Below are positions 16,420 through 62,388 of a stretch of DNA of 64,000 bases, in pieces. Below the pieces are notes generated by a model. It was not told the origin of the DNA, did no database searches, and saw only the letters and a list, made by a program, of their open reading frames with translations. The stretch is taken from assembly GCA_046581755.1 (NCBI GenBank), contig JAYGFR010000031.1, positions 1 to 64,000 on the forward strand, read 5' to 3'. The translations under genes were made by a program, and so were the position numbers. Each line of letters begins with the position of its first letter. Position 1 is the stretch's first letter. This stretch comes from Nitrospinota bacterium (GTDB taxonomy: Bacteria; UBA8248).

Positions 16420-16692
16420 ATGAACGATCAAACCGACTTCCGGAAATTCTACCGCGACGCCCACGCCACCGCGCTTCTGACCGACCGCGAGAAAAAACTC
16501 ATCGGCATCGCGGTCGCCATCGTCCGAAACTGCCAACCCTGAGTGGACCACCGCCTGGCGGCCGCCGGGAAAGCCGATATCCCAGAAGAGGTGCTGGACG
16601 CCACGTTCGATCTCACCACCGCGGTGATGGCCGGAATCGGACAGAGCATGAACCGGCGCTACAAGGATTCCCTGAAACCGAAAGAGGGGTAG
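16420..16692 (+). CDS. AhpD/carboxymuconolactone-decarboxylase-like selenoprotein (C38-x-x-U41), 90 aa
   Basis: AAGGAG RBS, then ATG 16420. LTDREKKLIGIAVAIVRNCQP-TGA(16540)-VDHRLAAAGKADIPEE... continues to TAG 16692. Hairpin follows the TGA. Confidence 0.85.
16554..16569 (+). promoter_or_regulatory. Candidate SECIS hairpin (AhpD-like gene)
   Basis: CCTGGC-GGCC-GCCGGG; the loop starts at +18 after the TGA. Confidence 0.65.
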
Positions 16693-16705
16693 CGGGCGGG
16701 GAGGG

Positions 16706-17374
16706 CTAGCGGACCTCGGCGCGGAGAACGTAGACATGGCGGGCGAGGGATTCCACTAGGCGGGAGGGATCGAAATCCCGGGGAGTGGTGATCTGGACCC
16801 GTACCCGCATCGGGCCGCCTTCGGGATCTTTTTTCACGTCCATCTCCCGGATATCGCAGCGCTCCTTGGAAAGAATGTCCTCGAGCTCCTGGAACATCTC
16901 TTCCTCCTCCCCGCCGTTTGCCACAATTTCCAGAAGCTTGAAGCGGCGCCGCCCGGAAATTCGACGGCCGACTTTTTTGAGCAGGCCCAGCGAAACCAGC
17001 ATGATCACCACCACCGACACAGCCTCGACGTGGAGGCCCACTCCCACGGCCAGGCCGATCCCCGCCGTGGTCCAAATGCTCGCCGCCGTGGTCAGCCCCC
17101 GCACCGAAGCGCCCATCCGGAGGATGGCGCCCGCCCCCAAAAAACCGATGCCGCTGACGACCTGGGCCGCGATGCGGCCGGGGTCGTTCGTGGGACTCCC
17201 CTCGGCCACGCGCATGGAGACTTCCATGAGCAGGGCGGAGCCGAGGCAGAGGATGATATGGGTGCGAAGACCGGCGGGCTGATTGTTGCGCTCGCGCTCC
17301 AGCCCGATGAGGCCGCCGAGGAAGGCGGCCTCGATCATGCGGAAAATGAATCCGATTTGGTCGGGGAGGATCAA
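16706..17374 (-). CDS. MgtC/SapB family protein
   Basis: GLIGLERE...PAGLRTH and RIAAQVVSGIGFLGAG...GLTTAASIW motifs. Confidence 0.92.
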   Translation of the reverse strand: MILPDQIGFIFRMIEAAFLGGLIGLERERNNQPAGLRTHIILCLGSALLMEVSMRVAEGSPTNDPGRIAAQVVSGIGFLGAGAILRMGASVRGLTTAASIWTTAGIGLAVGVGLHVEAVSVVVIMLVSLGLLKKVGRRISGRRRFKLLEIVANGGEEEEMFQELEDILSKERCDIREMDVKKDPEGGPMRVRVQITTPRDFDPSRLVESLARHVYVLRAEVR

Positions 17375-17375
17375 C

Positions 17376-18002
17376 CTATTTTTTCCCGTGTGGGTTCGGG
17401 CGCGCTTTGCGCCGGGAAATTTCTTTTTTGATTTCCGCCTTGGATTTTCCGTTCACCGGGATGCCGAACACCTCGCCCACCTTGGTCTGCTTGTCGAGCA
17501 GGCGCATAAACGCGAGATCCTCGATCTCGGCGAGCACCATCTCGCAGGTGCTGAATATGGTGCACCCCTCGACGAGATGGCCGCCGAAGCAGGTCGCCTC
17601 GGGTCGGCCCATCGAAATCGTGACGTGGGCATGAAGATAGGGCTTGCCGTCCTCGGTCTGGGTGATGTTGCCGCTCATCTGAAGAAGCTCGAGCGGGCCC
17701 TCGATGGGAGTGAAGATGCGGCAGTCGTTGTTGATGGGCCAGGGGTTGGGAAACTGCCATACGTTGCGAAGCGTCGCCCTCCGAAGGCTCGCCGCCACGC
17801 TGAGGATCACGCCCGCCTTCACCCCCCGCTCCGCGCAAATTTTCAGGGTCGTGCCGTACAAATCGTCGCCCGGGGCCATCCGGATCGTCAGCACGCGCCC
17901 GAGGCGCGCCTCCGCCACATCGTAACGGGGCGTGCGCTTCTTCCAGTCGGTTTCGTCGAAAATCACCTCTTGTGCTTGAGCGAATTTTTTTGTCGCCATC
18001 AA
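17376..18002 (-). CDS. PPC/DUF296 domain protein
   Basis: LELLQMSGN, HAHVTIS and FGGHL motifs. Confidence 0.85.
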   Translation of the reverse strand: MMATKKFAQAQEVIFDETDWKKRTPRYDVAEARLGRVLTIRMAPGDDLYGTTLKICAERGVKAGVILSVAASLRRATLRNVWQFPNPWPINNDCRIFTPIEGPLELLQMSGNITQTEDGKPYLHAHVTISMGRPEATCFGGHLVEGCTIFSTCEMVLAEIEDLAFMRLLDKQTKVGEVFGIPVNGKSKAEIKKEISRRKARPNPHGKK

Positions 18003-18168
18003 CCGTTCCTCTCCTCAAATTGATTCGCATCCCGCGGGATGGAAATTGCGATCGCCTCAAACCGTCCAGCCATTCGTGTGTCCGTTTATTCTAGCCCCCC
18101 GGATTCTAATCCCAAGCCCGGGGGAATGAAAACCAAGGGCCGCCATCCCGCAGTCCCCATCGAGGAAC

Positions 18169-19485
18169 CTAATCCCCTCGGTCGAAGCGGACGATCCCGC
18201 CCGAAACCGTCGTCCGGACAATCGCCCCGGGACGGAAAATATCGGCGAGCGCCACCTCCGCGGCGCCGGGCGGGGGCGCGATGACGGCGAAATCCGCCAC
18301 CCCGCCGGAGGTCAGCCGGCCCACCCCCTCGTCCGTGAACCCCAGGGCCCCGGCGCCGTTCACCGTGCAGATTTCCAGGAGCGCATCCGCCGTCAGGCCC
18401 GGGTCCGCCTCCCAGAGCGCCGCCGCCTCATCGAGCAACGAGAGCGAAGGGCTGCTCGCCCGGCTGTCCGTTCCGAGGCAGAGCCGGAGACCGGCACGCC
18501 GCATCCCGGCGGCATCGGCGAAAGGATGCCCGAAATAGGCGGTCGACCGGGGACACAGGCAAACCACCGCCCCGGCGCGCGTGAGAAGCTCCCAATCCTC
18601 CTCGTCCGTCTGGTTGCAGTGGACCGCCAGATCGATGTCCTCCAGGACCCCCGCATCGGCCAGGTAGCGCACGGGCGAGCAGCCCGGCGGATCGAAGCCG
18701 TTGACCGCGCTCTCCAACGCTTTGTGCATTTCGGCGAACGCGCCGCCACCGTCCTTGAGGAACCGCACCTCTTCGGGGCTTTCGGCCAGATGGGTGGCCG
18801 AGGGCCAGGTCCGACCGCGCGCCTCCTCGAGCGCCAAGCGGTAGAGCGGAATCGATGTCGTGTAGGGCGCATGGGGACTGACCCCATCCCTGAGAAATTC
18901 CGCCCCGCCACCGGTCTCGCCACCAGTCTCGAACACCCCATCCGCGGAGGGAAGCCTTTGGCGGACAATCGAATCCGCCTCGGCAGGGGCCAGCCCCAGC
19001 ACCTCGCTGAACACCACCCCGCGCATCTCCATGAACGATAGGATCACCCGGCTGTGGCCCGAGGCCGAAATATCTCCCACACAGGTGACGCCCGAGCCAA
19101 ACGATGCGATCGCGCCGAGCCGGGAGGAGGAGAGAAAAAGAGGGGGCGGCCAGCCGCGCGTCTCGCGGACCAGGGCCACGATCCACTCGGCCATCGGCGC
19201 GCGCGTGGCCTCGAATCCGCTCAGCTCGAGGTGGGTGTGGGCGTTCACGAGACCTGGGACGAGAACCGCCCTTCCGAAATTCCGCTCGGGAACCAGCGGC
19301 CCCTTGGGGCGGACCTCCGCCTCCGGGCCCACCGCTTCGATGCGGCCGCCCCGGGTGAGGACCGCTCCGCCGCGAATGGGCGGGCTCCCGGCCGGGCACA
19401 CGAGATCGGCCCGCCAGAGGTTTTGTCTTCGAGAGGGGGTCTGCTCCGCGCGGTTTCCGTTTTCCGGGCCGCTAGCTGAGCTCAT
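18169..19485 (-). CDS. Amidohydrolase, probable aminodeoxyfutalosine deaminase
   Basis: PGLVNAHTHLELS, SPHAPY, HLAES, VHC and LGTDS motifs. Lies downstream of mqnC. Confidence 0.78.
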   Translation of the reverse strand: MSSASGPENGNRAEQTPSRRQNLWRADLVCPAGSPPIRGGAVLTRGGRIEAVGPEAEVRPKGPLVPERNFGRAVLVPGLVNAHTHLELSGFEATRAPMAEWIVALVRETRGWPPPLFLSSSRLGAIASFGSGVTCVGDISASGHSRVILSFMEMRGVVFSEVLGLAPAEADSIVRQRLPSADGVFETGGETGGGAEFLRDGVSPHAPYTTSIPLYRLALEEARGRTWPSATHLAESPEEVRFLKDGGGAFAEMHKALESAVNGFDPPGCSPVRYLADAGVLEDIDLAVHCNQTDEEDWELLTRAGAVVCLCPRSTAYFGHPFADAAGMRRAGLRLCLGTDSRASSPSLSLLDEAAALWEADPGLTADALLEICTVNGAGALGFTDEGVGRLTSGGVADFAVIAPPPGAAEVALADIFRPGAIVRTTVSGGIVRFDRGD

Positions 19486-19717
19486 GATATTTGCGCGGCC
19501 TCAGGAAACCCGTGCCCGGACCCTTCCCGAACCGGTAGGCCGCGCGCCGGAGACTGGCCAGGTCATGTTCCCAGCGCCAATCGTTGACCTGGAGCCTTGT
19601 TCTCAGGCGGCCCGACTCCCACGCACACATGGCGGCGTAGGCGATCACGAGAGCAACGCCCCAACCGGGGAGGATCAATAAGAGGATTAAACCGAGAACG
19701 ACGGACAAGGAAGCCAT
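19472..19717 (-). CDS. Small hypothetical membrane protein
   Basis: Tightly packed between mqnC and the deaminase, with a hydrophobic N-terminus. Confidence 0.45.
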   Translation of the reverse strand: MASLSVVLGLILLLILPGWGVALVIAYAAMCAWESGRLRTRLQVNDWRWEHDLASLRRAAYRFGKGPGTGFLRPRKYHELS

Positions 19718-19719
19718 GA

Positions 19720-20799
19720 TCAGATCAACTCATAGAAAAAATTTCGCCGCCGGAGGGTGAAGCCCGCGGCCCCGGCCATGCGGTGAAGATCGGCTTCGTT
19801 CAGGCAATGGACCGTACCCGCCGAGCTTACCACGTTCTCCTCCAACATGGTCGAGCCCATGTCGTTCGCCCCGAAGCGCAGCGAAAGCTCGCCCACCTTC
19901 ATCCCCTGGGTCACCCAGGAGGATTGGATGTTCTCGAAGTTGTCCAGGTAGAGGCGGCTGATGGCCAGGGTGCGCAGATACTCGCTGCTGCCCACCGTCT
20001 GCGCCTTGAGCGCCGCCGATCCGTCGTTCTGGAACGTCCAGCAGATAAACGCCGTGAACCCGCCGGTCTCGTCCTGGAGCTCCCGGAGGCGGTCCAGGTG
20101 TTCGATCCGCTCGGCGGGGGTTTCGACGTGGCCGAACATCATCGTCGCCGACGAGCGAAGGCCCAGCCGGTGCGCCTGGCGCATTACGTCGAGCCAGCCA
20201 TCCGAATCCACCTTGAGGCGCGCGATTTGGCGCCGGACCCGGTCCACCAGAATCTCGCCGCCCCCGCCCGGTATCGAATCGAGGCCCGCCTCCCGGAGGC
20301 GGACGATCACCCGCTCGTAGGGAATGTCCTCGAGCTTGGAGATATGGTGAATCTCGGGCGGGCTCAGCGCGTGGAGATGGAGATCCGGATACTCCATCTT
20401 CAGCCAGCGGAACAGATCTTCGTACCATTCGATCCGAAGGTCCGGGTGATGCCCTCCCTGGAGGAGGATCTGCTTCCCGCCAGCGGCATAGAGCTCGTCC
20501 AGCTTTTGGCGAATCTCCTCCTTGGTGCGGATGTAGGCCTCGGGGTGATCCCCGGGCGGGCGGTAGAAGGCGCAGAAGGTGCAATAGACATCGCAGACAT
20601 TCGTGTAGTTAATGTTGCGGTCGATGCAGTAGGTGGCAAAACCTTCGGGGTGCTTTCGGGCGCGGACCTCATCCGCCGCCGCGCCCAGGGCGGGCAGATC
20701 GTCTCCCTCGAGCAGGGCCAGGCCCTCCTCCATCGAGAGCCGCTCGCCCCCGGCTGCTTTTTCCAGCGCCTCGTAAAACGCCGATGTCGCCGTCGTCAT
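19720..20799 (-). CDS. mqnC: Cyclic dehypoxanthine futalosine synthase (radical SAM)
   Basis: DRNINYTNVCDVYCTFCAF, LQGGHHP, PGGGGEIL, QSSWVTQG and EENVVSSAG motifs. Start ATG 20799 after GAGG. Confidence 0.92.
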   Translation of the reverse strand: MTTATSAFYEALEKAAGGERLSMEEGLALLEGDDLPALGAAADEVRARKHPEGFATYCIDRNINYTNVCDVYCTFCAFYRPPGDHPEAYIRTKEEIRQKLDELYAAGGKQILLQGGHHPDLRIEWYEDLFRWLKMEYPDLHLHALSPPEIHHISKLEDIPYERVIVRLREAGLDSIPGGGGEILVDRVRRQIARLKVDSDGWLDVMRQAHRLGLRSSATMMFGHVETPAERIEHLDRLRELQDETGGFTAFICWTFQNDGSAALKAQTVGSSEYLRTLAISRLYLDNFENIQSSWVTQGMKVGELSLRFGANDMGSTMLEENVVSSAGTVHCLNEADLHRMAGAAGFTLRRRNFFYELI

Positions 20800-20894
20800 G
20801 ATTTCCTCGGATCCGGTCGCCCGGGGTGATATGGAGCGGGGAGTATACGGGGGTTTCCCCATCCGGGCGAGGGTGGGCATCCTCCCGCCAATTG

Positions 20895-20925
20895 TTGACA
20901 AGTCCAGATATTGGGACTATATAAT
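20895..20925 (+). promoter_or_regulatory. Sigma70-like promoter with a dyad in the spacer
   Basis: TTGACA at 20895 and TATATAAT at 20918-20925. Spacer dyad AGTCC-N8-GGACT. Confidence 0.55.
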
Positions 20926-21242
20926 CTTAATATAAAAGCGCTACCCCCAGCCGGGGTCACCCGGCCCCTCCTCGAATCGGACCATCTGGTACACGCGCCG
21001 GTGCCCCTACACCGCCCTGCCCCGGCGGGAAATTCATTCATCCCATCTCCCCCGCCGGGGTGTTGCCCGCCGGGGTCTTGGAAAAGCATCCTCCATTCTT
21101 CTTCCCCTTGGCCATTTATTTCCATACCCGCACTCAAGCTCCCACCACCACACTCCCCTTGCACCACTCCTCCCAGCCACCACACCTCCCCGAACGCACC
21201 GTCCCGCAGCCGGCAGGTTCAAATTTCCCGGTTTTCGCCCCC

Positions 21243-21286
21243 TTGACGCACATAAAAATTATATATATATTGTATATACTTTTTAT
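21243..21286 (+). promoter_or_regulatory. mazEF promoter with palindromic operator
   Basis: TTGACG-N17-TATATT. 14-bp inverted repeat (13/14 match) at 21252-21265 and 21273-21286. Confidence 0.75.
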
Positions 21287-21288
21287 TT

Positions 21289-21546
21289 ATGGGGATACTT
21301 GCCGTGGCCACCCAGATTGGAAAGTGGGGAAACAGCTTGGCCGTCAGGATTCCATCCGCCCTGGCGGAGCAATTCGGCTTGAAGGAAGGCTCTCCGGTGG
21401 AGATCATTACCGACGACCGGGGGCTCCTGGTCCGGAAGCCCGGCTACCGGCTGGAGGATCTCCTCGCGGGCATCACCCCCGAAAACCTGCCCCAAGAGCC
21501 TTCTCCCGGCCCGGCCGTGGGAGGTACGGACGGGGGAGGCGGATGA
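21289..21546 (+). CDS. mazE: AbrB/MazE antitoxin
   Basis: KWGNSLAVRIP and YRLEDLLAGITPENL motifs. Confidence 0.9.
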   Translation: MGILAVATQIGKWGNSLAVRIPSALAEQFGLKEGSPVEIITDDRGLLVRKPGYRLEDLLAGITPENLPQEPSPGPAVGGTDGGGG

Positions 21547-21869
21547 GATCCGGTCTCGTCCCGGATCGCGGCGACATCCTCTTCCTGGATGGGGGCGCCG
21601 GACAGCGCGGCCGGGCCCCGGCTCTCATCGTCTCGCCCCGGGCCTACAACCGCGCCACCGGCCTTGCGCTCGCCTGTCCCATTATTCAAACCCCCGGGGG
21701 CTATCCGTTCGAGGTGCTCCTCCCCGGCAACCTGGGCATCGCCGGAGCGGTCCTCGCCGACCGGCCCCAAAGCCTCGACTGGCGCTCCCGCCGCCCCGAA
21801 TTCGCCGCCCACGCCCCCAAGGCCGTCCTCGAGGAAATCGCCGCGAAGATAGCCATCTTGCTTGAGTGA
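21543..21869 (+). CDS. mazF: PemK/MazF family toxin (divergent active site)
   Basis: ATG 21543 overlaps the mazE stop. VPDRGDI, PALIVSPRAYN, GYPFEV and SLDWRSR motifs. Confidence 0.88.
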   Translation: MRSGLVPDRGDILFLDGGAGQRGRAPALIVSPRAYNRATGLALACPIIQTPGGYPFEVLLPGNLGIAGAVLADRPQSLDWRSRRPEFAAHAPKAVLEEIAAKIAILLE

Positions 21870-21979
21870 GGGGGGGGGGATACCCATCAGATTTCATCAA
21901 TATGATCACACACGGATATCCATTGCACCCGGATGGCGGGACGCCGGGGGTCGTGCGGAAGTATCGGGCCGGGCCGGCG

Positions 21980-22522
21980 CTAGATACTAATCACCTTCCC
22001 GTTGAGCTTGATCTCGCTTTTGAGCGGGACGGCGGCCTGGACCATGGCTTCGGCGAAACACCCCTGCTTGGCGTTTTTGATGAGGGCGAGGACGCGCTCC
22101 TCGGGGGCGTCGGATTCGACGGTGAAGTACGTCCGGGTTTCGAGGCATTCGGCTTTCACGGTGCCCCTCAGGACGGAGCCGGAGAGAAGGTAGTCCATCT
22201 CGACGCGGACCTTGCTGCTCTTGTATTCGATTTTCATCATGCTCGCGTACCGCGAGAGTTGGGTGAGCAGTCAGAAGCCGACTCCCATGCAGATGTAGGT
22301 GAGGGGCTGGGGGTGCTCGTCCTTTCCGCCCAGATCGGCGGGCTCGTCGCACATGACCTCGAAGTGGCGGTGTCGGCCGACCTTGAGCTGGGAGCCCGGG
22401 GGCGCCTCGGTGTCGGCGAACTGCTTGACCAGAAGGCCCTGCCGGGGGAGCTCGGGTTTGTCGATCACCCGCTCGCCGGGGGCGGTGCTCATGTCGCGGT
22501 GGAGGAGGGGCTTATCGTTCAT
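21980..22522 (-). CDS. OsmC-like selenoprotein, paralog 1 (Sec84), 180 aa
   Basis: CDEP..GG.D..PQPLTYICMGVGF-TGA(22271-22273)-LLTQLSRYA continues in frame into track ORF 21980..22240, which carries a second Cys in NAKQGCF. Confidence 0.87.
22242..22256 (-). promoter_or_regulatory. Candidate SECIS hairpin (OsmC-like 1)
   Basis: CTCGCG-GTA-CGCGAG at +15 to +29 after the TGA. Confidence 0.7.
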
Positions 22523-22559
22523 GGGACGCCTCTTCAAGAAAAAGGAATTGGAGCTGGGC

Positions 22560-23981
22560 TCATCCGACCGGCGGCCGAAGCGCCCGGATTTCCGGGGTCG
22601 CACTCTCGTAGGCATGGGCGCACCGGAGCGCGGCGGCCTCGCGCCAGGGGGCGGTGACGATGTCGAGCGAAAGGGGCAGGCCGATTTTGTTCAGCCCCAT
22701 GGGCACGACCAGCGAGGGGCAGCCGGTCATGTTGTGGCAGGAGAGAAACGGGCGGTGGAGGTAGCTGAAGGGAAGGTCTCGCCCGTTCATCTCGGCCATC
22801 AGGGTTTCGATGGGCGGGGCGGCGCAGGGGACCGAGGGCATGATCATGGCGTCGGCATCTTTTAAAAACGCGGCCGCCTCGCGCCGGAGCAGGACCCGCT
22901 CTCGCATGGCGTGGACATAATCGTCCAGCGGAATCTGGGCCGACCACTCGTAGCGCTCGCGCACGTCGTCTCCATAGCCATCGGGGTTTTCCTCGTAATA
23001 CGGCCGGTGAAACGCGGCGAACTCGGGCCCGGCGATCTTGGGAAACAGCTCCCCGAAGCGGCCGGCGTTCGGGAAGGAGACCTCCTCGATATTCGCGCCC
23101 AGATCCCGGAACACAATCGCCGCACGGGCGAAGGCCTCTAAAATCTCGGAGTCCACCTCGGAGTTAGAGTAAAAATCAGGACAAATAAAAATCCGGCTGC
23201 CCGCGACGCCCTTGTCGATCCCCTCGGTGTAATCGGGCACGGAAACGTCCCGCGTTTTCGAATCCAGCGGATCGAAACCGGCCATGACGTTCAGGAACAT
23301 CGCCGCGTCTTTTGCGCTGCGCGTCATCGGGCCGCAATGGTCCAGGCTCAGGACGTTCGGGCAGATCCCCCGGATGCTCACCCGCCCGTGGGTGGGCTTG
23401 AGGCCGACGATGCCGCAAAAGGCCGCCGGGGTGCGCACCGATCCGCCCGTGTCGGTGCCCAGCGCGGCGGGGATCATGCCCGCCGAGACCGCCGCCGCCG
23501 AGCCGCCGCTCGAGCCGCCGACGATACGATCCGGGTTCCAGGGATTGTGCGAGGTGCCCCAGTGGGGGTTGATGGTGGTCGATGCGGCGGCGAACTCGTG
23601 GGTATGGGTCTTCCCGATCAGGATGGCCCCGGCCCGCTTGAGGCGGGCGATGACTTCGGCGTCCTCTGCGGGCACGTTGTCCCGGTGGAACGATGATCCG
23701 TTCGTGGTGCGGATTCCGGCGGTGTCGATGATGTCCTTCGCACCGTAGGGGATGCCGTGCAGGGGGCCCCGATAGCGGCCCGCGGCGATTTCGTCTCCGG
23801 CCCGCCGGGCCTCCTCCATCGCCAGCTCGCCCGTGACGGTCAAAAAGCCCAGGTACTCTTCGTTCAGCGCCTCGATGCGCCCCAGGAGGGCCTCGACGAT
23901 TTCGGCCGGGGAGAGAGAGCGGTTTTTAATTTTCCCGGAGAGCTCGAATACGCTCAAATCGCAAAGGGCATCATCCACCAC
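22560..23981 (-). CDS. Amidase signature family protein
   Basis: GPLHGIPYGAKD, GGSSGGS and GTDTGGSVR motifs. Start GTG about 23981 after GGAGGA. Confidence 0.9.
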   Translation of the reverse strand: MVDDALCDLSVFELSGKIKNRSLSPAEIVEALLGRIEALNEEYLGFLTVTGELAMEEARRAGDEIAAGRYRGPLHGIPYGAKDIIDTAGIRTTNGSSFHRDNVPAEDAEVIARLKRAGAILIGKTHTHEFAAASTTINPHWGTSHNPWNPDRIVGGSSGGSAAAVSAGMIPAALGTDTGGSVRTPAAFCGIVGLKPTHGRVSIRGICPNVLSLDHCGPMTRSAKDAAMFLNVMAGFDPLDSKTRDVSVPDYTEGIDKGVAGSRIFICPDFYSNSEVDSEILEAFARAAIVFRDLGANIEEVSFPNAGRFGELFPKIAGPEFAAFHRPYYEENPDGYGDDVRERYEWSAQIPLDDYVHAMRERVLLRREAAAFLKDADAMIMPSVPCAAPPIETLMAEMNGRDLPFSYLHRPFLSCHNMTGCPSLVVPMGLNKIGLPLSLDIVTAPWREAAALRCAHAYESATPEIRALRPPVG

Positions 23982-24010
23982 GGCAGCCACTCCTCCCAGA
24001 TTTTGGCTGG

Positions 24011-24778
24011 CTATCTTCCCGGCGCATGAAGAATGCGCGTTTTTTTCTTCAGCGTCCTGAGCATCAGGTAGACGATCAGGCTGAGGGAGAAAATAACAGC
24101 CCAGCCCGTATCGATAACGAATTCTTTTTTCACGGTCCAATCGCCGATGGCCTGGAACAGGGTCATCACCGCGATCACGCAGAAAAACCCCGAATACTCT
24201 CTCCGCAGGACCGTCCTCGCCGAGAAAGGAAACGAGGGTTTCTCCCAGTTCGAAAATCTGGGGAAAATAACCGGTGTCCGCTCCGTCCAGCGGAGATATT
24301 CATCCCCGAATTTTTCGCGCAAAAACTCTTCCTCCCGCAAGATGATCCGCTCGTAGTAAATCCAGAAAAACATCGCGAGCAACACCAACGTGAGGGGCGA
24401 TTGCAAGAAGAGAAGCAGGCCCGAGACCATAACGAAGTTTCCCAGATAAAGCGGGTTCCGGCAGAGGGAGTACATGCCGGTGGTGTTGAGCTGGCTGGCC
24501 TTTTGATTTTTCGTGATTCGGCCCGAGGTTCCGGCCGGGGCGTGTCCGACGCTGAGCGCCCGGATGGCCAGGCCGGACAGGGAAACCGCCAGGCAGACGA
24601 TTTCGAGAACGCCGGCCCAGAACTCCGAGTTCATCGGAAAGCGGTAATGGCGGAACTCGTAGAGGACCACCGGAACGATCGCCAGGGGGAGGTAGCCCCT
24701 CCAGCGGAAAAGCCAGTCGCCTTGTCTGACCATATCCTCTTTCAGCATGGCACCACGGCTTTCGAGTTCAAGAGACAT
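24011..24778 (-). CDS. Membrane methyltransferase, ICMT-like/lipid A phosphate methyltransferase (LmtA) family
   Basis: QGDWLFRWRGYLP, GTSGR, YSLCRNPLYLGN, YYERI and RREY. Start at 24778 or 24748. Confidence 0.75.
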   Translation of the reverse strand: MSLELESRGAMLKEDMVRQGDWLFRWRGYLPLAIVPVVLYEFRHYRFPMNSEFWAGVLEIVCLAVSLSGLAIRALSVGHAPAGTSGRITKNQKASQLNTTGMYSLCRNPLYLGNFVMVSGLLLFLQSPLTLVLLAMFFWIYYERIILREEEFLREKFGDEYLRWTERTPVIFPRFSNWEKPSFPFSARTVLRREYSGFFCVIAVMTLFQAIGDWTVKKEFVIDTGWAVIFSLSLIVYLMLRTLKKKTRILHAPGR

Positions 24779-24827
24779 TCGGCGTCCAACGAAAAATTTC
24801 CATAACCCGCGCGGCCCGGCGCGCCGC

Positions 24828-26755: not shown

Positions 26756-26916
26756 CGAACCCACTCAGCCAAAGCCCCCGAAACCCCCAAGAGGCGGGTT
26801 TTTGAACCTACCGGACAACCCGGCAAGTGTCGTATCTAGAAAGGGGGGGTGTCAATGCAGGCCCGGCCTTGCAGGCATCCCTTGCTCCCCCGGCCCGACA
26901 GGGAGCCCGGTGCCCC

Positions 26917-27123: not shown

Positions 27124-27171
27124 AGGAGAATCTCCTTTCAGGAATGGGAGAGCGTTTCCGGCGGGCGGCCT

Positions 27172-28334: not shown

Positions 28335-28388
28335 CTCAACAGACCTCAAATGATCGATTGCCTTCCGGCTGCCCGCCGGGCTCAAGCG

Positions 28389-32899: not shown

Positions 32900-33763
32900 C
32901 TATTTCGCCGCGGCCCTGGCTTCTTCCTCTTCCTTCATCCGTTTCAGGAACACGGGCGCGGGAGTGTCCGGGCGCCACTTGGTCTGATCCGGAGGCTCGG
33001 GCCACTCATAGGGAAGATGGACATACGTATTCGGCCCCTTCGCCGATTCGAGCAAATCGGCCATGCCGCCGCAGATTCTCCGCTGCCCCTCGCGGTCGCC
33101 CACATCTCCAATCTGGCGGCCGAAGGGATACTGGATAAACGCGGCGCGCGGGACGGCGACCTTCTCCGTCATCCCGGGCACGTTGCTGAGAGAAACCGTG
33201 GCGATTCCCGCCCTTTCGATTTCGCGCTGAAGCAGTCCGCCGGACCGGATGCAAAGCGGTCAGACGGGAATGAGAAAAACCGCATCCACCTTCTCGGACT
33301 TCATTTTTTCGACCATCAGCGGCGCCGTGCGCTTGATCAGCGGGTTGAAGTTGGGGATGTAGCCCATGATGGAATAGAGCGTATCGGCGAGGCTCCCGAT
33401 TTTTCCCTCGCTCTCGTAGTCGTTGAAAATGTCCACCGGCCAGGCCACGTTCCGGTCCTTGGCCATAAAGCTCGTGTCGATGTGCAGATGGCTGTACTCC
33501 ACATCGTCCTGGCCCGCCGTTCGCGGAATCTCTCGGTGGCTGGGGTCGCCCCAGGTCGGCTCGGCCCGCTCACGATCATAGTCGAACGACACATCCCCTT
33601 TCGCAAAGATTCCGGCCGTGGAAACCAGCGTCACGCGGCATTCCGAAAGCGGCTTGGAGAGCGGCGTCCAGGGCGTTTCCGCCGGGTCGTTGGCCCGCAT
33701 TTGCTCGATACGATCCTTTTGCCCGGGGTGAAAAAACAAACTGTCGACTTTCGTGATCGCCAT
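32900..33763 (-). CDS. PrdB/GrdB-like reductase selenoprotein (U168-x-x-C), 287 aa
   Basis: AAGGAG RBS, then ATG 33763. KPLSECRVTLVSTAG, GDPSHREIP and VDAVFLIPV-TGA(33260-33262)-PLCIRSGGLLQREIERAGIATV...VPRA...PFG, ending at TAG 32900. Confidence 0.9.
33233..33247 (-). promoter_or_regulatory. Candidate SECIS hairpin (PrdB-like)
   Basis: CGGTCC-GGC-GGACTG at +13 to +27 after the TGA. Confidence 0.65.
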
Positions 33764-47404: not shown

Positions 47405-47446
47405 GCGACTGCTCCCGCTCCTCCGAAAGCCGCCCGGGAGCCCAGA

Positions 47447-54049: not shown

Positions 54050-54186
54050 GCCAGATAATCCCGAATCGATCAGAGCGTTTGATGTAGGACCGCAGAGTAA
54101 CCCTACAAGTATGGTCGGGTGGGTTCTTCGGTGTCAACGGTAGGGCTATGGTATATTGAGGCGGCCATAAAGGAGGGATTCGGCGA

Positions 54187-54747: not shown

Positions 54748-54771
54748 CCTCCCCGCCCGGCCGGTGAAATC

Positions 54772-55560
54772 TTAAATCGCCTTCAGGCGGCCTCCGTCCA
54801 CCAAAATATACCCGCCCGTGATGTAGCTCGCCCCTGGCGAGACCAAAAAACCCACCATCGCACCGAATTCATCCGGCTCCCCAAGCCGGCCGAGCGGAAT
54901 CTGCTTGGTGGCCACGGCCAGGGATTCTTCGAGCGAGATATTTTTCTTTTTCGAGAAGGCGGCGCGGTTCTGTCTCACCCGGTCGGTCAGAACCGCACCG
55001 GGAGCCACCACATTAACCAGAATTCCATCGCCGGCCAGTTCGCGGGAGAGGAATTTCGACAGCCCCGCCACAGCGGGCCGCATCACGTTCGAAAGAGTCA
55101 AGTTCGGGATGGGCTCCCGAACCGAGCCGGAAAGATTAAAAATAATCCGGTCGTATCCGCGCCCTTTCATATGTGGCAAGACGGCATCGACAAGACGCAC
55201 CGCGCTCATGACGCTCAATTCGAACGCACGGCGCCAGTCATCGTCCGAAAAGTCATTAAACTCACCCGGCGGCGGGCCGCCCGCATTCGACACCAGAACA
55301 TCCACCCCTCCGAAATGTCCCGCCCCGCCCTCGATGAAATATTTTACGCCTTCCACCGTGCCGATACCGGCCGCACAATGCCAGGTTTCGATATCCGCCT
55401 CTTTTGAAATATCTTCCGCGGCGGCGGCGGCCTCATCGGCATTTCGTGAGAACAACCCGATCTTCGCCCCTCGGCGGGCCATCGACAGCGCCGACGCACG
55501 TCCGAGACCTTTGCTGGCCGCGGATACAAGAGCGACCTTCCCTTCCATATTTCGCATCAA
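54772..55560 (-). CDS. SDR family oxidoreductase
   Basis: SAASKGLG, NAGGPPPG and LSNVMR motifs. Confidence 0.9.
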   Translation of the reverse strand: MMRNMEGKVALVSAASKGLGRASALSMARRGAKIGLFSRNADEAAAAAEDISKEADIETWHCAAGIGTVEGVKYFIEGGAGHFGGVDVLVSNAGGPPPGEFNDFSDDDWRRAFELSVMSAVRLVDAVLPHMKGRGYDRIIFNLSGSVREPIPNLTLSNVMRPAVAGLSKFLSRELAGDGILVNVVAPGAVLTDRVRQNRAAFSKKKNISLEESLAVATKQIPLGRLGEPDEFGAMVGFLVSPGASYITGGYILVDGGRLKAI

Positions 55561-55572
55561 ATACCTCCCACG

Positions 55573-56001
55573 TTAGGAATCATTGCCTTCGGCGATCTCG
55601 ACGAAATAGCGCATCACGTCGATTTCGGTAATGATTCCAAGTAGTTCACGGTCATTGTTGACCACGGGAAGACACCCGATTCTCATCTCGAGCATGCGCT
55701 TGGCCGCGTGCACGACTGGCTCGTTCGGATCGGCCAGCTTCACATCCTTGACCATCACCTTCTCGACATCGGTAGCCTCTAGCAGCTCTTTGCGATCCTC
55801 TTTGGAGAAATTGATCCCCGAGGAAAGTTTCGCGCGGAGCAGGTCTCGTTGGGTCACCAGGCCGACGACAAAACCCCCTTTAGTCACCGGCATGTGGCGG
55901 ATATCTCCACTCGACATGATCTCATCGACGAGATCCAGTTTTTCATCGAGGCTGATGGTGACAACGCCCGTGGTCATAATTTTACTGACACGTTCATCCA
56001 A
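55573..56001 (-). CDS. CBS domain pair protein
   Basis: IRHMPV..GLVTQRD and IGCLPVV..GIITEID motifs. Confidence 0.9.
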   Translation of the reverse strand: MDERVSKIMTTGVVTISLDEKLDLVDEIMSSGDIRHMPVTKGGFVVGLVTQRDLLRAKLSSGINFSKEDRKELLEATDVEKVMVKDVKLADPNEPVVHAAKRMLEMRIGCLPVVNNDRELLGIITEIDVMRYFVEIAEGNDS

Positions 56002-56022
56002 AAATTTCCCCCCTGGCGCCGG

Positions 56023-56889
56023 TCAAGAACCGCCTCCACCTCCCCGGGGTACGGCGAGAACCAGCGCCGGCACAATTCTTCCAGCCAAGAAAGTCAAATA
56101 TCCATCTCCCTGAACCACCAACTGGGAACTCGACCCCCCATCGAGGTTCATCGCCTCAATTGCCCCCAGGCCGCCATCCGGCTCGGAGCGGACCAAAAAA
56201 TTCTGAAGTTCGCACCAGGAGATCCCGCGCCCGATTTCCTCGCTCACCATGAAAATGAGGCGCCCTTTTTCCCCGAATGCCAAGATCGTCCGCCTGTCCG
56301 CTCGGCGGTACTCGCGGTATGCGTCCAGCCCGGGGTCGGGCCGCCCCCCGCGCACGAGATAGGGGCCGGCCTGAAACGCCTCCCGAACCCCTTTCGAATC
56401 GAAATCCTCGCGGGTTGCGATACCCACCTTTCCGGAACCTTTCAAGACGTAAAAAACCGCTCCCAAGTGAAGCGCCCGCCGCCGTCCCCGGAAAAGAAGG
56501 CGGCTGTTGAAAATCGTATCGGCCGTGCGGAAGTAGCCGAGCGGCCTTCCTTTTTCGTCGAAATATCCCGCGTTCACCACAACGGCGGCCTTGGTCATCT
56601 GCGCAATTATGCGCACGGCCTCGGACCTTATATTTTTGCCCGCCTGCCACCTGAGCCGAATATCGAATTGATCCGGATCGAGCCGCGCCGCGGTCATCCT
56701 TGAGGTGGTGCCATCCTCGAAACGGATTTGAATCTTTCTGACTTCCATCCCCGGGCCAATGGTGCGCCAAGTGTTTATTCCGCCTACCAAGCGGGTCTTA
56801 CAGCCATCTTCCGAAGCATGGGCGGTGGCAACGGCGGCGATGAAAATCGCCGCCGCGAAGGACAACCCGGCATTCCGGAATTTGACCAC
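56023..56889 (-). CDS. Phosphodiester glycosidase (NAGPA) family protein
   Basis: Signal peptide; VNAGYF, QAGP, RT and AMNLDGGSS motifs. Confidence 0.85.
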   Translation of the reverse strand: MVKFRNAGLSFAAAIFIAAVATAHASEDGCKTRLVGGINTWRTIGPGMEVRKIQIRFEDGTTSRMTAARLDPDQFDIRLRWQAGKNIRSEAVRIIAQMTKAAVVVNAGYFDEKGRPLGYFRTADTIFNSRLLFRGRRRALHLGAVFYVLKGSGKVGIATREDFDSKGVREAFQAGPYLVRGGRPDPGLDAYREYRRADRRTILAFGEKGRLIFMVSEEIGRGISWCELQNFLVRSEPDGGLGAIEAMNLDGGSSSQLVVQGDGYLTFLAGRIVPALVLAVPRGGGGGS

Positions 56890-56952
56890 GGCCCCCCCCC
56901 CTTCGCTCCCTACCAGCGTATTATGAGCCTTTCCTGACGACGAAGCCCCCCG

Positions 56953-58602
56953 TCAAAATCCAACGGCGCAACCGTCCCTGCGATGGTCCGACCCGCCCAT
57001 GTAAGCGTCCCCCGGCATGCGAACAATCCCCTGCCCGCCTCCGAAGCCCTCGTAACCGCCGCTCCGAGCCACATCGTGGCCTCTTTCGCGAAGGTCTTCG
57101 AGCACATCGTCCGGAACGCCGCCCTCGATGGCGACCTCCCGGCCCTCCAGGATGCGAAACCGGGGCGCCTCGATAGCCTCCTGAATGTTCATGCCAAAAT
57201 CCACCATGTTGGACAGGACCTGGACATGGCCCTGGGGCTGCATGTCACCTCCCATGATGCCGTAGCTCATCCACGGCTCACCGTCCTTCATCACGAATCC
57301 GGGGATGATGGTATGAAACGGCCGCTTCCCGGGCGCGATGCAATTGAGATGGCCCTCCTCCAGTTCGAAGCCGAAACCTCGACTCTGGAGCATGATCCCC
57401 GTATCGCCCGCCGTGACGCCGGATCCGAAATGATGGAAAAGGCTGTTGATGAAGGAGCACATGTTTCCGTCGCGGTCTGCGGTGGTGAGATAGATCGTGT
57501 TGCTCGATCTCGGCGGGGAGCCGGAAACAGGATCGCCGGCCACGTCCGCCAGAATCAATTCGCGCCGGCTTTCGGCATACGCCTTGGACAAAAGCCCCTC
57601 CAGAGGGACTTCGGCCTGCGCCATATCGGTGATGTACTTCCCCCTGTCCGCGAAGGAGAGCTTCATCGCCTCGATGAGACGGTGGAGATGATCCGCACAG
57701 CCGTAGCTGTAATCCGACAGCGGATACCCTTCGAGAATGTTCATGCAAATGAGAGCGGCAAGCCCCTGGCCGTTCGGAGGAATCTCGCAAAGCTCATAAC
57801 CCCGGTAGTTCGTCCGGATGGGCTCGACCCAGGTGCAGCGGGTGTCCGCGAAATCCTCCATTTCGAACAGGCCGCCCAGTTCCCCCGAAGCGGCTACAAT
57901 CGCCTCGGCCACCGGCCCGTGGTAGAAGGCTTCTCTTCCGCCATCGGCCAGGAGCCGGAACGTGGCGGCCAGATTTGGATTCCGGAACACTTCACCCACC
58001 TTCGGCGCCCGCCCGCCAGGAAGATAGGTCCGCTTCGAGGCTTCGAAGGAGGAGAGTTTCTCTTCCTGCATTCGCCAGGCGTTTCCGATGATGGGCGTCA
58101 CCGGAAATCCATTTTCCGCGTAATGGATGGCCGGGGCCAGCAGATCGGTCATCGATTTTTTTCCGCTCCCGAACCGATCGAGCGCCGAGCACCAGCCGTC
58201 GAACGCGCCCGGCACGGTGACCGCAAAAATCCCCTTCTGGGGAGCGATGGTGAACCCCTCGCTCCGGTAGCGCTCCAGGGTGGCGGCGCGGGGGGAGCGG
58301 CCGCTCGCGTTCAGGCCGGCAAGTTGCTTCTGGGCGGCATCCCAATAGATCAGGAACATGTCGCCGCCGATGCCGGTGGACTGGGGCTCCACTACGTTGA
58401 GCGCGGCCGCGCCGGCGATGGCGGCGTCCATCGCGTTCCCTCCCTCCCGGAGGATCTGAAGGGCCGCAATGGCGGCGAGGGGCTGGCTGGTCGCCACCAT
58501 TCCCTCTTGCGACAGGACCGGAGAGCGGCCCGCGGGCAAGGAGGTTTTCGTTGTCGGCGGCAGCCTTTTTGTTTTCGAGTCCAAAAGCATTGTCTGGCTC
58601 AT
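56953..58602 (-). CDS. ggt: Gamma-glutamyltransferase family
   Basis: GGNAMDAAIA, GIGGD, PPNGQG, nucleophile Thr in NTIYL, RPFHTIIP and GGDMQPQG. Confidence 0.92.
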   Translation of the reverse strand: MSQTMLLDSKTKRLPPTTKTSLPAGRSPVLSQEGMVATSQPLAAIAALQILREGGNAMDAAIAGAAALNVVEPQSTGIGGDMFLIYWDAAQKQLAGLNASGRSPRAATLERYRSEGFTIAPQKGIFAVTVPGAFDGWCSALDRFGSGKKSMTDLLAPAIHYAENGFPVTPIIGNAWRMQEEKLSSFEASKRTYLPGGRAPKVGEVFRNPNLAATFRLLADGGREAFYHGPVAEAIVAASGELGGLFEMEDFADTRCTWVEPIRTNYRGYELCEIPPNGQGLAALICMNILEGYPLSDYSYGCADHLHRLIEAMKLSFADRGKYITDMAQAEVPLEGLLSKAYAESRRELILADVAGDPVSGSPPRSSNTIYLTTADRDGNMCSFINSLFHHFGSGVTAGDTGIMLQSRGFGFELEEGHLNCIAPGKRPFHTIIPGFVMKDGEPWMSYGIMGGDMQPQGHVQVLSNMVDFGMNIQEAIEAPRFRILEGREVAIEGGVPDDVLEDLRERGHDVARSGGYEGFGGGQGIVRMPGDAYMGGSDHRRDGCAVGF

Positions 58603-58622
58603 TCGAAAAATAACTCCAAGCA

Positions 58623-59687
58623 CTAAAAAGAATCGGGGGGGGGTTGTCCCTTCAGGAACACGGACTCAATACATCTTTCGCCGTCCGGCGAGACGGCGAG
58701 GGCATCCGGCCCGACGATGCACCGCTCCAAGGATACCTTCTCCCCGACCTCCGCCCCAGGAAACAACACCGAATGTACGACCGAGGCGCCCTCGCCCAGA
58801 GTAGCACCGCCTCCCAAAACCGCGAAAGGGCCGGCGGAGGCTCCCCGGCCCAGGCGCACCCCTTTTCCGATCAGAACGGGCGGATGGACCACGCCCCCGC
58901 CCCAATCCATGGAGGGCCCTTCCACCAGCACATCCCCTCCGGCGGGCCAATCCATCCCGGGGACAAACCGCCCGGCGAGCAGATCGTCTGCGGCATCCAG
59001 ATACCGTGCCGGCGTGCCAACGTCGGCCCAGTAGGAATTCGTCACCAGCGCGCCGATGAGGGCGCCCCCTTCGATCAAGGGGGGATACACCTCCTCGGAA
59101 ATCCCGCAAGGACGCCCCGGGGGGATGTGGTCGAGAAATTCTGGAGATAAAACGCTCTGCCCGGTAAACATCCCCTCGGTCAGGGCGCCGGCGGGCTGGC
59201 CGGGCGCCTCGGCCCGGAGAAACCTCCGGAGCCGCCCCGCCTTATCCACGGCCAGTAGACCGAATTTTTCCGCTTCCGGCGACGTGCGCAAAACCAGTGT
59301 CGCCAGGAATCCGCCCGCCTGATGGCGGGCCAGCGCCACCTCCAGATCGGCATTGCTTATGATATCGGCGTTTAATACGAAAAACGGCCCGCCAGTCTCC
59401 CGCAGGAAGGCTTCCGCCTGTTTAATCCCACCCGCCGTTCCCAATATCTCGGGCTCGAACGAGTAGCGGATCTCTACGCCACAGGCCGATTCCCCGAGTT
59501 CTGCCCGAATCGCCTCGGCCCGGTGATGGAGGTTCACGACGGCTTCCTTCACGCCCGCCCGGCGGAGCCTGTCCAGAGCAAACCGGATCACCGGCACGCC
59601 GCCCAGAGGCAAGAGCAGCTTGGGCACCGATTCGCCGAGCGAGCCCATCCGGACGCCGAGGCCCGCCGCTAGGACAAAAGCGCGCAT
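58623..59687 (-). CDS. NDP-sugar synthase/nucleotidyltransferase
   Basis: LAAGLGVRM..PK, LGTAGGI, NAD and WADVGTP, with C-terminal hexapeptide repeats. Confidence 0.88.
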   Translation of the reverse strand: MRAFVLAAGLGVRMGSLGESVPKLLLPLGGVPVIRFALDRLRRAGVKEAVVNLHHRAEAIRAELGESACGVEIRYSFEPEILGTAGGIKQAEAFLRETGGPFFVLNADIISNADLEVALARHQAGGFLATLVLRTSPEAEKFGLLAVDKAGRLRRFLRAEAPGQPAGALTEGMFTGQSVLSPEFLDHIPPGRPCGISEEVYPPLIEGGALIGALVTNSYWADVGTPARYLDAADDLLAGRFVPGMDWPAGGDVLVEGPSMDWGGGVVHPPVLIGKGVRLGRGASAGPFAVLGGGATLGEGASVVHSVLFPGAEVGEKVSLERCIVGPDALAVSPDGERCIESVFLKGQPPPDSF

Positions 59688-59862
59688 CGCCAGCCCAAAA
59701 TGAACCTCTCCAAATGGCGGCGAACGATTTCATGCCACAGGCACCCCGCCCGGCCGAAAGCAATGGCGCAATTTCTTTCAATCGGCATGGGTCAAAGCCG
59801 CCTGTCCGGGGGGGGCGAATGTGAAAAGATGGATTCGCACGGACGGCCGCTGGACCGGTGTC

Positions 59863-60768
59863 TTAATCGGAGGAATTCCCGTTTTTCCTGCGGCGGAAGA
59901 ACGATTGGATCTCATCCGCAAGCTCTTCGCCCGAGGGCAACTCCTCGGGTTCCGTGCCTTGGGCTTCCTCGTCTTCGTCCAGGTCCTTCTTGGCCCGGGT
60001 ATTCCACAGATCCGTCTGGGAGAGAAGGCGAGCAATTCCGGGCCGATCTTCGATGGCTTCCTTTATCTGGGAATCAAACTGATCCACCGACTTTTGCAGT
60101 TCGCTCAGGTCGAACCGAACCTCTCCAGTGGCCCCGAGACGATCCAGAAGGGCATGAGCCGCCTTTGGATTCGGCAGCGAGGAGATGTAATGCGGGATAT
60201 TGGCCCAAAGGCTCACCGCCGGAATCCGCGCATTCTGGAACTGGGTATGAATCACGCCCACGATGCCGGTCGGACCCTCGTATTTGGTTGCCGCCACCCC
60301 GGTGCGATCCGCCAGGCTGGGGTCGGTCGCCAGGCAAACCAATTCGGGCGGTTCGGTGTGGGACAGTCCTGCCAGCAAGGCACCCATGGTCACCGCCAGG
60401 CGCGATTTGCACACCTGGACAAGTTCGAGAACATCCTGGCTGAACGTCTTCCACCTGAGTTGCGGCTCCACACCGACGCACACCACCAGGTCGCGCGATA
60501 GGTCCGGATGCTTGCAATAATAAAACGCGTTCTCGGGCCAGGAGATCTTACGGTTTCCATCCCTATCGAGCCGGACGAGGGGCCGTTGGTCCGAATACTG
60601 AAAAAATTCATCCGGTCCAAACCACGCGAAGCGCTTGCCTCTGTATTGATTGATCAGGAACCGCGCGGCGATGGTCGCCGACCGGGCGGCATCGTTCCAT
60701 CCCTCAAAAGCCAGAACAAACATCGGATCGCGGAGTTCTGGAAGGATCTCGATGTGAAGATTTTTCAT
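59863..60768 (-). CDS. PAC2 (proteasome assembly chaperone-like) family protein
   Basis: AFEGWNDAA, RP, EPQLRW, YEGPTGIVG and WANIPHY...NPKAA motifs. Confidence 0.85.
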   Translation of the reverse strand: MKNLHIEILPELRDPMFVLAFEGWNDAARSATIAARFLINQYRGKRFAWFGPDEFFQYSDQRPLVRLDRDGNRKISWPENAFYYCKHPDLSRDLVVCVGVEPQLRWKTFSQDVLELVQVCKSRLAVTMGALLAGLSHTEPPELVCLATDPSLADRTGVAATKYEGPTGIVGVIHTQFQNARIPAVSLWANIPHYISSLPNPKAAHALLDRLGATGEVRFDLSELQKSVDQFDSQIKEAIEDRPGIARLLSQTDLWNTRAKKDLDEDEEAQGTEPEELPSGEELADEIQSFFRRRKNGNSSD

Positions 60769-60919
60769 TGTGGAATTCTCTCCGGATCAGGCAGCCGGCC
60801 GGTAACAGGCCCCATATCGGAATTTCATTTTACCCTCGGCTCCCGGCTCACCTCAAGGCAAGCCCGGGAAGAGGGCGGGCGAAACCCGCTATCTGACACC
60901 GGACATTCGCTTTCAGGAC

Positions 60920-61765
60920 CTATCCGGCCTGCCCCGAGGGATGCTCGCCGAGGGCGTCGTAAACGATCCCGACGCCGTTTTTCTGGAGCAAATAAGCCCT
61001 GTCGCCCAGGACGCGAGGATGCTCAAGGCCGGGTCGATCGATGTAATTCACCCGCTCCTGGACCTCCTCGCGACCGAGCCCGAGATCCTTGAGCTTCTTC
61101 ACCTCCCCAATGACGTCGAACATCCTTTGCCGCTGGCGGGGAATTTCATCTTTCCGGCAAGGGCCGCCGTGTCCCGGCACGTACCAGTCCACGTCGAGGG
61201 ATTCCAGCAAGGCGAGCGATTCGAACCACTCCCAGACCGCAGCCGAATGGAAGAAGGGATAATTGCCGGGGGTGATGTTGTCCGCCGTGAAGACAACGCG
61301 GGCCTCCACGGCGTGAACGACCGTCTGGCCCCGCGTGTGGCCGGGCGAGAATATGAGATGAAAGGTTTGGCCGCCGAGCCGAAGCGTCATCCGGCTGCGA
61401 AAAGTGATGTCCGGCCAGCGGATTTCGTACCCATCGAGGAGAGGCCCGCACTCGGGATCGTAAAACAGCATGCGCTCCTTGGCCACCTCGACGGAGGGAA
61501 GCGAGGTCAGGAAGTCGGAATAGGTCACCTCGCTCGAAATGATCGTCCCTCCCCCCAGATACCAGTTCGATGCGATGTGATCTTGATGATGTTCGGTGTT
61601 GATGTGGTAGCGGAGGGGCCCTTTCGAAGCAATGAAATCACGCCATTCGATCGCGTCGCTGGGCTTCATGGGGCCGTCGATGGCGACGACGCCCTCGGAG
61701 GTGATCACCATCCCCACTGTGGGGTAACGGTTCATGTAAAAAACCTGGTCGGTCAATGAGTCCAT
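60920..61765 (-). CDS. MBL-fold hydrolase (cyclase-like)
   Basis: NTEHHQDH, PGHT, FTAD and VPGHG motifs. Start ATG 61765 after GAGG. Confidence 0.85.
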   Translation of the reverse strand: MDSLTDQVFYMNRYPTVGMVITSEGVVAIDGPMKPSDAIEWRDFIASKGPLRYHINTEHHQDHIASNWYLGGGTIISSEVTYSDFLTSLPSVEVAKERMLFYDPECGPLLDGYEIRWPDITFRSRMTLRLGGQTFHLIFSPGHTRGQTVVHAVEARVVFTADNITPGNYPFFHSAAVWEWFESLALLESLDVDWYVPGHGGPCRKDEIPRQRQRMFDVIGEVKKLKDLGLGREEVQERVNYIDRPGLEHPRVLGDRAYLLQKNGVGIVYDALGEHPSGQAG

Positions 61766-61833
61766 CGCTGCCTCACTGGGGGGCGGGAGAGCCGGATTTA
61801 CAGGCGTGCCCATCCTCCCGTGCCGGCCCCCTG

Positions 61834-62388
61834 TTATCCTGAAATCCCTTCGAGCTCCAAGGGCTCGCCGTTCAGTTCGATTTCACTTTTGAGCGGGACG
61901 GATGACTGGATCATCCGCTCGGCGTAGCAACCCTGCTTGGCGTTCCGGATAAGCAGAGCGATCTTCTCGGGCGGGGCACCGCTTTCCACCCGGAAAATCG
62001 TTCGCGTCTCTGTGCACCCGGACTCGACCGTCCCCTTCAATACCGAACCACGCAAAAAATAGTCCATCTCCACCCGACAACTCGCCTTGGTGATCTCGAT
62101 TTTCATCATGTGCGCGTACCGCGCCAGCTGGGTGAGCAGTCAGAAACCCACCCCCATGCAGATATAGGTGAGAGGCTGGGGATAGCAATCCTGCCCCCCG
62201 ATTCGGGGCGGCTCATCGCAAAACACCTCGAACTTCTCCTTCCGCCCCACCTTGATCTGGCCGTCGCCGCTCCACTCGGTCTCCGCCCATTGGTAGGAAA
62301 CCGTCCCTTGGGGCGGAAGCTCGGGCTTGTCGATGAGCCGCTCCCCGAGAACGGCACTGAGCTCTGTCGTCACTATCGGTTTTTCCAT
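61834..62388 (-). CDS. OsmC-like selenoprotein, paralog 2 (Sec83), 184 aa
   Basis: PQPLTYICMGVGF-TGA(62140-62142)-LLTQLARYA continues in frame into track ORF 61834..62109 (NAKQGCY). Confidence 0.87.
62112..62124 (-). promoter_or_regulatory. Candidate SECIS hairpin (OsmC-like 2)
   Basis: GCGCG-GTA-CGCGC at +16 to +28 after the TGA. Confidence 0.7.

Follow-up and report, generated by a model that had tools for sequence, protein, structure and literature searches.

The window analysed here, a 64,000-nucleotide stretch (positions 1 to 64,000, forward strand, of contig JAYGFR010000031.1, assembly GCA_046581755.1) from a Nitrospinota bacterium of the UBA8248 lineage, carries four genes that each contain one in-frame TGA at the position of a redox cysteine. 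These UGA codons are very likely read as selenocysteine (Sec, U) by the standard bacterial route, judging from the reading frames, the hairpins downstream and the machinery of the genome. The best explanation, to which we give a probability of about 95%, is that the four genes encode selenol enzymes and that they belong to a genome-wide habit, in which the expanded families of AhpD, UGSC, OsmC and thioredoxin-fold proteins prevail and which includes five candidate families that are uncatalogued.

Four window genes with an in-frame UGA

Each of the four TGAs is the sole stop in its own frame (90, 180, 287 and 196 residues), coding potential runs on beyond it in a dicodon model, and it sits at the redox-Cys position of a known family: CxxU in a CMD/AhpD-like protein, UxxT in two OsmC_like_Se proteins and UxxC in a PrdB-like protein. 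The products are predicted to be selenol oxidoreductases. The CMD/AhpD-like gene (16420..16692, + strand) encodes 90 residues with the motif C38-x-x-U41 (CQPU), the putative Sec41 codon being located at 16540..16542. When read through, the product matches the CMD domain PF02627 over residues 9-71, U41 included (27.7 bits against a gathering threshold of 23), and it is predicted to reduce disulfides or peroxides as a CxxU enzyme of the CMD/AhpD type. It shares the CxxU inside the CMD domain with other CMD/AhpD-like selenoproteins (PF02627; NF041047; the AhpD domains of NF045649 and NF041537). Unlike those models, the window form is a 90-residue stand-alone protein that scores under every NCBIfam cut-off (best 30 bits), including that of the GSU3128 family model NF041047 (21.8 bits against 110).

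Two OsmC-related genes lie on the - strand. Gene 1 (21980..22522) encodes 180 residues with the motif U84-x-x-T and a putative Sec84 codon at 22271..22273; gene 2 (61834..62388) carries a U-x-x-T motif with its putative Sec codon at 62140..62142. The frame of gene 2 is open from an ATG at 62424 (the 196-residue frame), and comparison with paralogs favours the ATG at 62388 as the likelier start. Both products share UxxT with the OsmC-like family of NF041052 and PMC1088965, score above the NF041052 cut-off of 95 (162 bits for gene 1 and 168 bits for gene 2), and have a Cys-bearing OsmC paralog that aligns at their UGA sites; they are predicted OsmC/Ohr-fold peroxidase-like enzymes. The PrdB/GrdB-like gene (32900..33763, - strand) encodes 287 residues with the motif U168-x-x-C171 and a putative Sec168 codon at 33260..33262. 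Its UxxC motif is shared with PrdB (TIGR04483) and with marine PrdB-like selenoproteins (PMC1088965), and homology to TIGR04483 covers residues 31-254. By motif the product would be a PrdB subunit, yet its 120 bits, under the cut-off of 300, would place it outside PrdB proper, and it is predicted to be a stand-alone UxxC reductase subunit. No prdA or grdE adjoins the gene among the neighbours viewed (zinc dehydrogenase, short-chain dehydrogenase/reductase, DUF1207); no genome-wide prdA search was made. Under the standard code, both halves of the AhpD-like gene and the N-terminal halves of both OsmC-related genes are without any Pfam match. AhpD-like, CMD, OsmC-like and PrdB selenoproteins were already listed in 2005 (PMC1088965), and the families of the window genes are long known (PMC1088965, PMC13188914); taken alone, the four genes are ordinary new members of them.

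A candidate bacterial selenocysteine insertion sequence (bSECIS) follows each UGA. The predicted hairpins are located at 16554..16569 (+ strand, 6 bp stem, GGCC loop at +18) in the CMD/AhpD-like gene, 22242..22256 (- strand, 6 bp stem, GUA loop at +21) in OsmC-related gene 1, 33233..33247 (- strand, 6 bp stem, GGC loop at +19) in the PrdB/GrdB-like gene and 62112..62124 (- strand, 5 bp stem, GUA loop at +21) in OsmC-related gene 2. This strict geometry was found at 4/4 window sites, compared with 23 of 1585 TGA, 21 of 1302 TAG and 14 of 928 TAA stops and with 231 of 10390 Cys codons, an overall background of 1.5-2.2% of ordinary stops or Cys codons. The window hairpins conform to the bSECIS consensus described in PMC13188914, towards the short end of its range, and show no mechanistic difference from SelB/bSECIS-directed insertion in bacteria.

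The TGAs and the hairpins are kept in relatives. Of 51 class genomes, 42 have one copy of the 90-residue AhpD-like gene; a TGA lies within all 42 matches and at codon 41 in the 25/25 loci checked, with the same hairpin. For the OsmC-like genes, one TGA is present in 150/150 class-wide matches among the matches listed, which leave 30 further matches aside; its codon position was confirmed in 31/31 alignments, and 47 of the 50 other class genomes contain 1-11 matches each. The PrdB-like gene has a TGA at codon 168 in 12/12 matches from 11 related loci, with the hairpin at the same position, and the protein at one of them (L024) is 80% identical to the window protein. Across 21 sequences of the OsmC 6 bp stem, 96.8% of cells are paired and 12 two-sided changes occur, at three of the six pairs. 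The covariation score was reached by 0/500 shuffles, slid controls were far lower, and some of the paired changes alter the encoded residue.

The Sec machinery is present in this genome (4.22 Mb, 96.5% complete, 3% contamination). The selA (E 2e-149) and selB (375 bits) genes are together on one contig, selD (335 bits) itself contains an in-frame TGA, and the only TCA-anticodon tRNA that ARAGORN detected scores as tRNA-Sec; tRNA-Sec is found in 48/51 class genomes. SelD would make selenophosphate and SelA would make Sec-tRNA; SelB would bind the G-loop hairpin and deliver Sec at UGA, other UGAs would terminate translation, and the products would rely on selenol-based catalysis. Combined, a UGA at a redox-Cys position, a hairpin downstream and the presence of SelA, SelB, SelD and tRNA-Sec argue that the four UGAs are read as selenocysteine.

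These results agree largely with an earlier note made from the window sequence alone. The in-frame TGAs that it had placed at redox-Cys positions (16540, 22271, 33260 and 62140) are supported by the family matches obtained on read-through, the frame continues past each of them as it had said, and its hairpins (5-6 bp stem, 3-4 nt G-initiated loop, +18 to +21) were reproduced at all four sites. The two outcomes that it had named as refuting its reading did not occur: selA, selB, selC and selD are all found in the genome, and homologs have Cys or TGA at the sites rather than Trp or real termination. The minimal SECIS geometry that it considered shared is indeed found at 4/4 sites, but it is the ordinary bacterial one, and among the 71 candidates kept genome-wide (see below) no more than 29 show it. 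It had also regarded the AhpD-like, OsmC-like and PrdB/GrdB-like families as known, which is correct.

The four Sec genes are unlinked and form no functional cluster. The AhpD-like gene lies near an EamA transporter and MgtC, OsmC-related gene 1 near an amidase and a mazEF-type toxin-antitoxin pair that adjoins it (21289-21869), the PrdB-like gene near dehydrogenases and DUF1207, and OsmC-related gene 2 near a metallo-beta-lactamase. When words were sampled from a stretch of the window, 14 DNA runs contained at least half of them, 13 of these runs being labelled as seawater or marine and one as hydrothermal vent.

The predicted genome-wide selenoproteome

All 182,252 in-frame stops of the genome were scored by the dicodon model, hairpin tests and internal paralog pairs. 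The paralog pairs served as an internal control: a Cys in the best paralog faces 16 of the TGA stops and no TAG or TAA stop. Of the 100 TGA candidates considered, 71 were kept and 29 rejected; the 96 that lie beyond the window were scanned against NCBIfam. The kept genes comprise 18 AhpD/CMD, 8 UGSC, 7 OsmC, 5 DsbA, 4 Prx-like, 3 Grx, 3 deiodinase-like, 3 Trx/TlpA, 2 GrdB and 2 DUF3179 genes, five uncatalogued genes and 11 catalogued singles (PrdB-like, GrdA, SelD, SelW, MGMT, rhodanese, ArsM, CYCXC, MerT, MerP-like and MerB-like). A looser hairpin test was positive for 58 of the 71, compared with 13-20% in controls. The OsmC-related family NF041052 is expanded to 6 genes, one of them frameshifted, and a longer AhpD type has a TGA in 40 of 45 distant matches across five relatives. 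A motif scan yielded another 134 TGA contexts, and inspection made a convincing case for none of them.

The count decreases under stricter views. One AhpD gene (on C246) was set aside for having no hairpin and no close ortholog in five genomes, leaving 70; five kept Sec genes are frameshifted in the present assembly, leaving 65 intact, of which 60 fall in catalogued families; and four short contigs of less than 55.2% GC could be mis-binned, their removal leaving 61. For comparison, Table 2 of BSepDB credits three UBA8248 metagenome-assembled genomes (MAGs) with 54, 50 and 48 selenoprotein genes, its highest entry being Olavius Delta 1 with 63 (PMC13326102), and a 2026 review cites records of 57 and 63 and a Methylomirabilota MAG with 63 selenoproteins (PMC13188914). 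The present genome is on the same scale, the 61-70 genes having been obtained by a different method and with five uncatalogued families included, so that the counts are not strictly comparable. A record selenoprotein count is possible on this sequence evidence; as only 15 of the 71 genes were covered in relatives and the counts shrink as described, the record is not established.

The four window genes compare with 1.06 expected from the genome total (Poisson p 0.023), and the density of Sec genes in the window is only mildly above the genome average. The earlier note had taken four genes in 64 kb as the sign of a selenoprotein-rich organism; the organism is rich, with far more candidates than the four it counted, while the local excess is mild. 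Its picture of a hidden selenoproteome annotated as fragments also stood in part. Fragmentation by gene callers is supported: of the 47 public homologs of the DUF442 Sec gene described below, 46 are cut short immediately ahead of the UGA, at residue 95. The richness of the lineage was already in print (PMC13326102, Table 2). Finally, its description of redox genes applies to the window genes and not to every Sec gene of the genome.

The 29 rejected candidates were left out before counting, and only five of them were judged by relatives. The TGA of pyrB (L081:2104, G000 C86) reads TGC in contigs of 4/4 other runs and is found in 0/5 relatives; this private TGA, which imitates the Sec side of a Cys/Sec pair, is an artefact of the assembly or the sample. 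The TGA at the CuA site of the cytochrome c oxidase subunit II (CoxII) was found in 0/29 loci of relatives, that of a sulfite-oxidase-like gene in 0/3 relatives, that of a SoxY-like gene in 0/2, and that of a dienelactone-hydrolase-like gene in 0/5 at the site. The other 24 rejects corresponded to domain boundaries, to sites where Arg or Trp is expected, or to no family.

Several Sec genes are grouped. A mercury-type cluster (L067:1501-4983; G000 C351) near a MerR-like gene end has three Sec genes, encoding a MerT-like protein with two adjacent UGAs, a Grx and a MerP/CopZ-like UxxU protein. The kept MerB-like gene has its UGA away from the conserved Q-C-G cysteine, as in 4/4 relatives; a MerB-like homolog in another genome (L264; G001 C200) has three in-frame TGAs, one of them at that cysteine, and is possibly a double selenoprotein or a decaying gene. 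A grdC, grdA-Sec, grdE-like, grdB-Sec cluster and a second grdE/grdB pair were observed at L047:1501-6120 and L076 (G000 C256, C60), and these glycine/sarcosine/betaine-reductase-type clusters coexist with CoxII genes in the same genome. No internal stop was detected in eight matches to the molybdopterin oxidoreductase PF00384 (four partial; G000 C140, C279, C397, C304 and others), and therefore no Sec formate dehydrogenase was found.

Alternative readings of the UGA codons

UGA is read as Cys in some bacteria, and all sites are Cys positions in homologs, as would be expected if the codon were recoded but received Cys or Ser, through a UGA-reading tRNA-Cys-type system or a mischarged tRNA-Sec, with no selenium involved. 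However, the single TCA-anticodon tRNA scores as tRNA-Sec, and selA and selD, which are needed only for Sec, are present; we consider this explanation very improbable. Pseudogenes or assembly errors, in which TGA would be a true premature stop, have a smaller chance still. Errors do occur, as the TGC of other runs at the pyrB site and the five frameshifted Sec genes show, and nonsense changes are also seen at Arg, Trp and Gln codons. Against this, the same TGA is kept in 42/42, 150/150 (among the matches listed) and 12/12 related matches together with a conserved hairpin, and coding potential continues beyond it. Conservation refutes the premature stop for the four window genes; this explanation may apply to individual genome-wide candidates. 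A genome-wide reassignment of UGA to Trp or Gly is the least credible, for although a paralog shows Trp opposite four of the 32 strictly aligned in-frame TGAs, Trp faces TAG as often (3/23), homologs carry Cys and not Trp at the tested sites, and TGA, the commonest terminator in the genome, ends 1647 of 3890 called genes and 32 of 71 in the window (rluB, dinB and HDOD genes among them, as the earlier note had pointed out), and therefore the code is not reassigned.

Reading of the UGAs as selenocysteine is thus preferred, and a number of points weigh against it. Sec incorporation itself is something that we infer. By the looser hairpin test, which was tuned on part of the same candidate set, 13 of the 71 kept genes have no hairpin. 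The search in relatives was restricted to the 15 genes mentioned above, and kin genomes are not independent, their relatedness inflating the counts of conservation and covariation. The assembly contains false in-frame TGAs, as in pyrB, and relatives also lack the TGAs of the CoxII, sulfite-oxidase-like, SoxY-like and dienelactone-hydrolase-like genes.

Five uncatalogued candidate families

Five likely selenoprotein families, all outside the window, are missing from the 2026 catalogue, and Sec is predicted at catalytic or metal-binding cysteines in them. The first is the alpha subunit of a CoA-transferase-fold enzyme (C378), with a TGA in 35/35 matches of at least 62% identity and in none below 54%. 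The TGA is at codon 102 and is accompanied by a conserved hairpin in 20/20 loci, and residue 102 is Cys in 118/118 covering homologs (of 120 listed). Two database entries that are 83-84% identical cover the downstream half only. The UGA is unchanged in RNA-library contigs of one run (X15), which do not show transcription; contigs of a further run (X16) did not cover it. The alpha and beta subunits match the folds of IpdAB (6CO6/6COJ) and AibAB (5MZW), CoA-transferase-fold proteins that are not transferases. U102 aligns gap-free to a Glu that differs between PDB 6CO6 and 6COJ (Ala in 6COJ), which we take to be IpdA Glu105, the catalytic base. Unlike IpdAB and AibAB, the present enzyme has a UGA at this alpha site and a Val in beta opposite AibB Cys56; in the test for the catalytic Glu that canonical class I CoA-transferases have in the beta subunit, a Glu was found one residue earlier. 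The genes form an operon alpha(Sec)-beta-alpha(Cys)-CoA-binding(Sec) (L083:1501-4362; G000 C378). The beta gene follows the Sec alpha gene in 20/20 loci and the second alpha follows in four of these, all genus members. The CoA-binding protein of this operon is itself the second family, with a TGA in 5/5 genus members and, among the 25 loci, Cys in the 20 that remain.

The DUF442 family (PF04273, motif H-U-x-x-x-G-R) has a TGA in 57/57 full-length matches; its single-sequence structure model is mediocre, with a predicted local distance difference test score (pLDDT) of 65. Match coordinates place a Sec OsmC gene immediately ahead of the Sec DUF442 gene in genomes of genus g8 (G023:C31, G024:C1, G032:C4 and others). 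In a tandem DUF427 protein, TGA was found in 14/14 family matches covering the site and His in four class-level outgroups. One DUF427 ortholog (L194; G014 C305) has a one-base shift just past the UGA and is therefore broken or mis-assembled. The MetE-like enzyme, with the motif H-L-U, has a TGA in three of four close non-self orthologs and Cys in all distant ones; the motif aligns with H-I-C of PDB 1YPX, whose cysteine position is presumably a zinc ligand.

None of the five families is present among the 119 prokaryotic families of the whole of Table 1 in PMC13188914, in the main text of deep-Sep (PMC12013277, searched by terms) or in that of BSepDB (PMC13326102), and NCBIfam 20.0 has no selenoprotein model for any of them. 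Literature searches returned no relevant selenoprotein report for the CoA-transferase, DUF442, DUF427 or MetE families, the CoA-binding protein having not been searched separately. The BSepDB web data, Haft and Tolstoy 2025 and Deng et al. 2026 could hold some of the five.

Whereas the four-gene part is known biology, what is added here is a near-record count and five well-conserved candidate families beyond the lists searched, and the results suggest that curated selenoprotein counts for this lineage are underestimates. We put at slightly less than an even chance the broader proposition that this is the largest bacterial selenoproteome yet (65+ genes), with no detectable Sec formate dehydrogenase, with CoxII genes and with selenium beyond thiol-redox folds. 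According to a review, aerobic bacteria rarely keep selenoproteins (PMC13188914). The genome would run against this rarity if oxygen is respired, as may be supposed only from its cytochrome c oxidase genes and the seawater sources. The pyrB case indicates that Cys-to-TGA calls made in single MAGs need confirmation in relatives. Under the broader proposition, selenium would have come to occupy the site of the catalytic base in a CoA-transferase-fold enzyme, that of the P-loop nucleophile in a sulfur transferase of phosphatase fold and that of a zinc ligand in a MetE-like enzyme, and would also be used in DUF427 and in a CoA-binding protein. Several uncharacterised families would in that case have their working residues marked by Sec, and the Cys-to-Sec swap, by pointing to a catalytic residue in enzymes of unknown function, makes these predictions directly testable.

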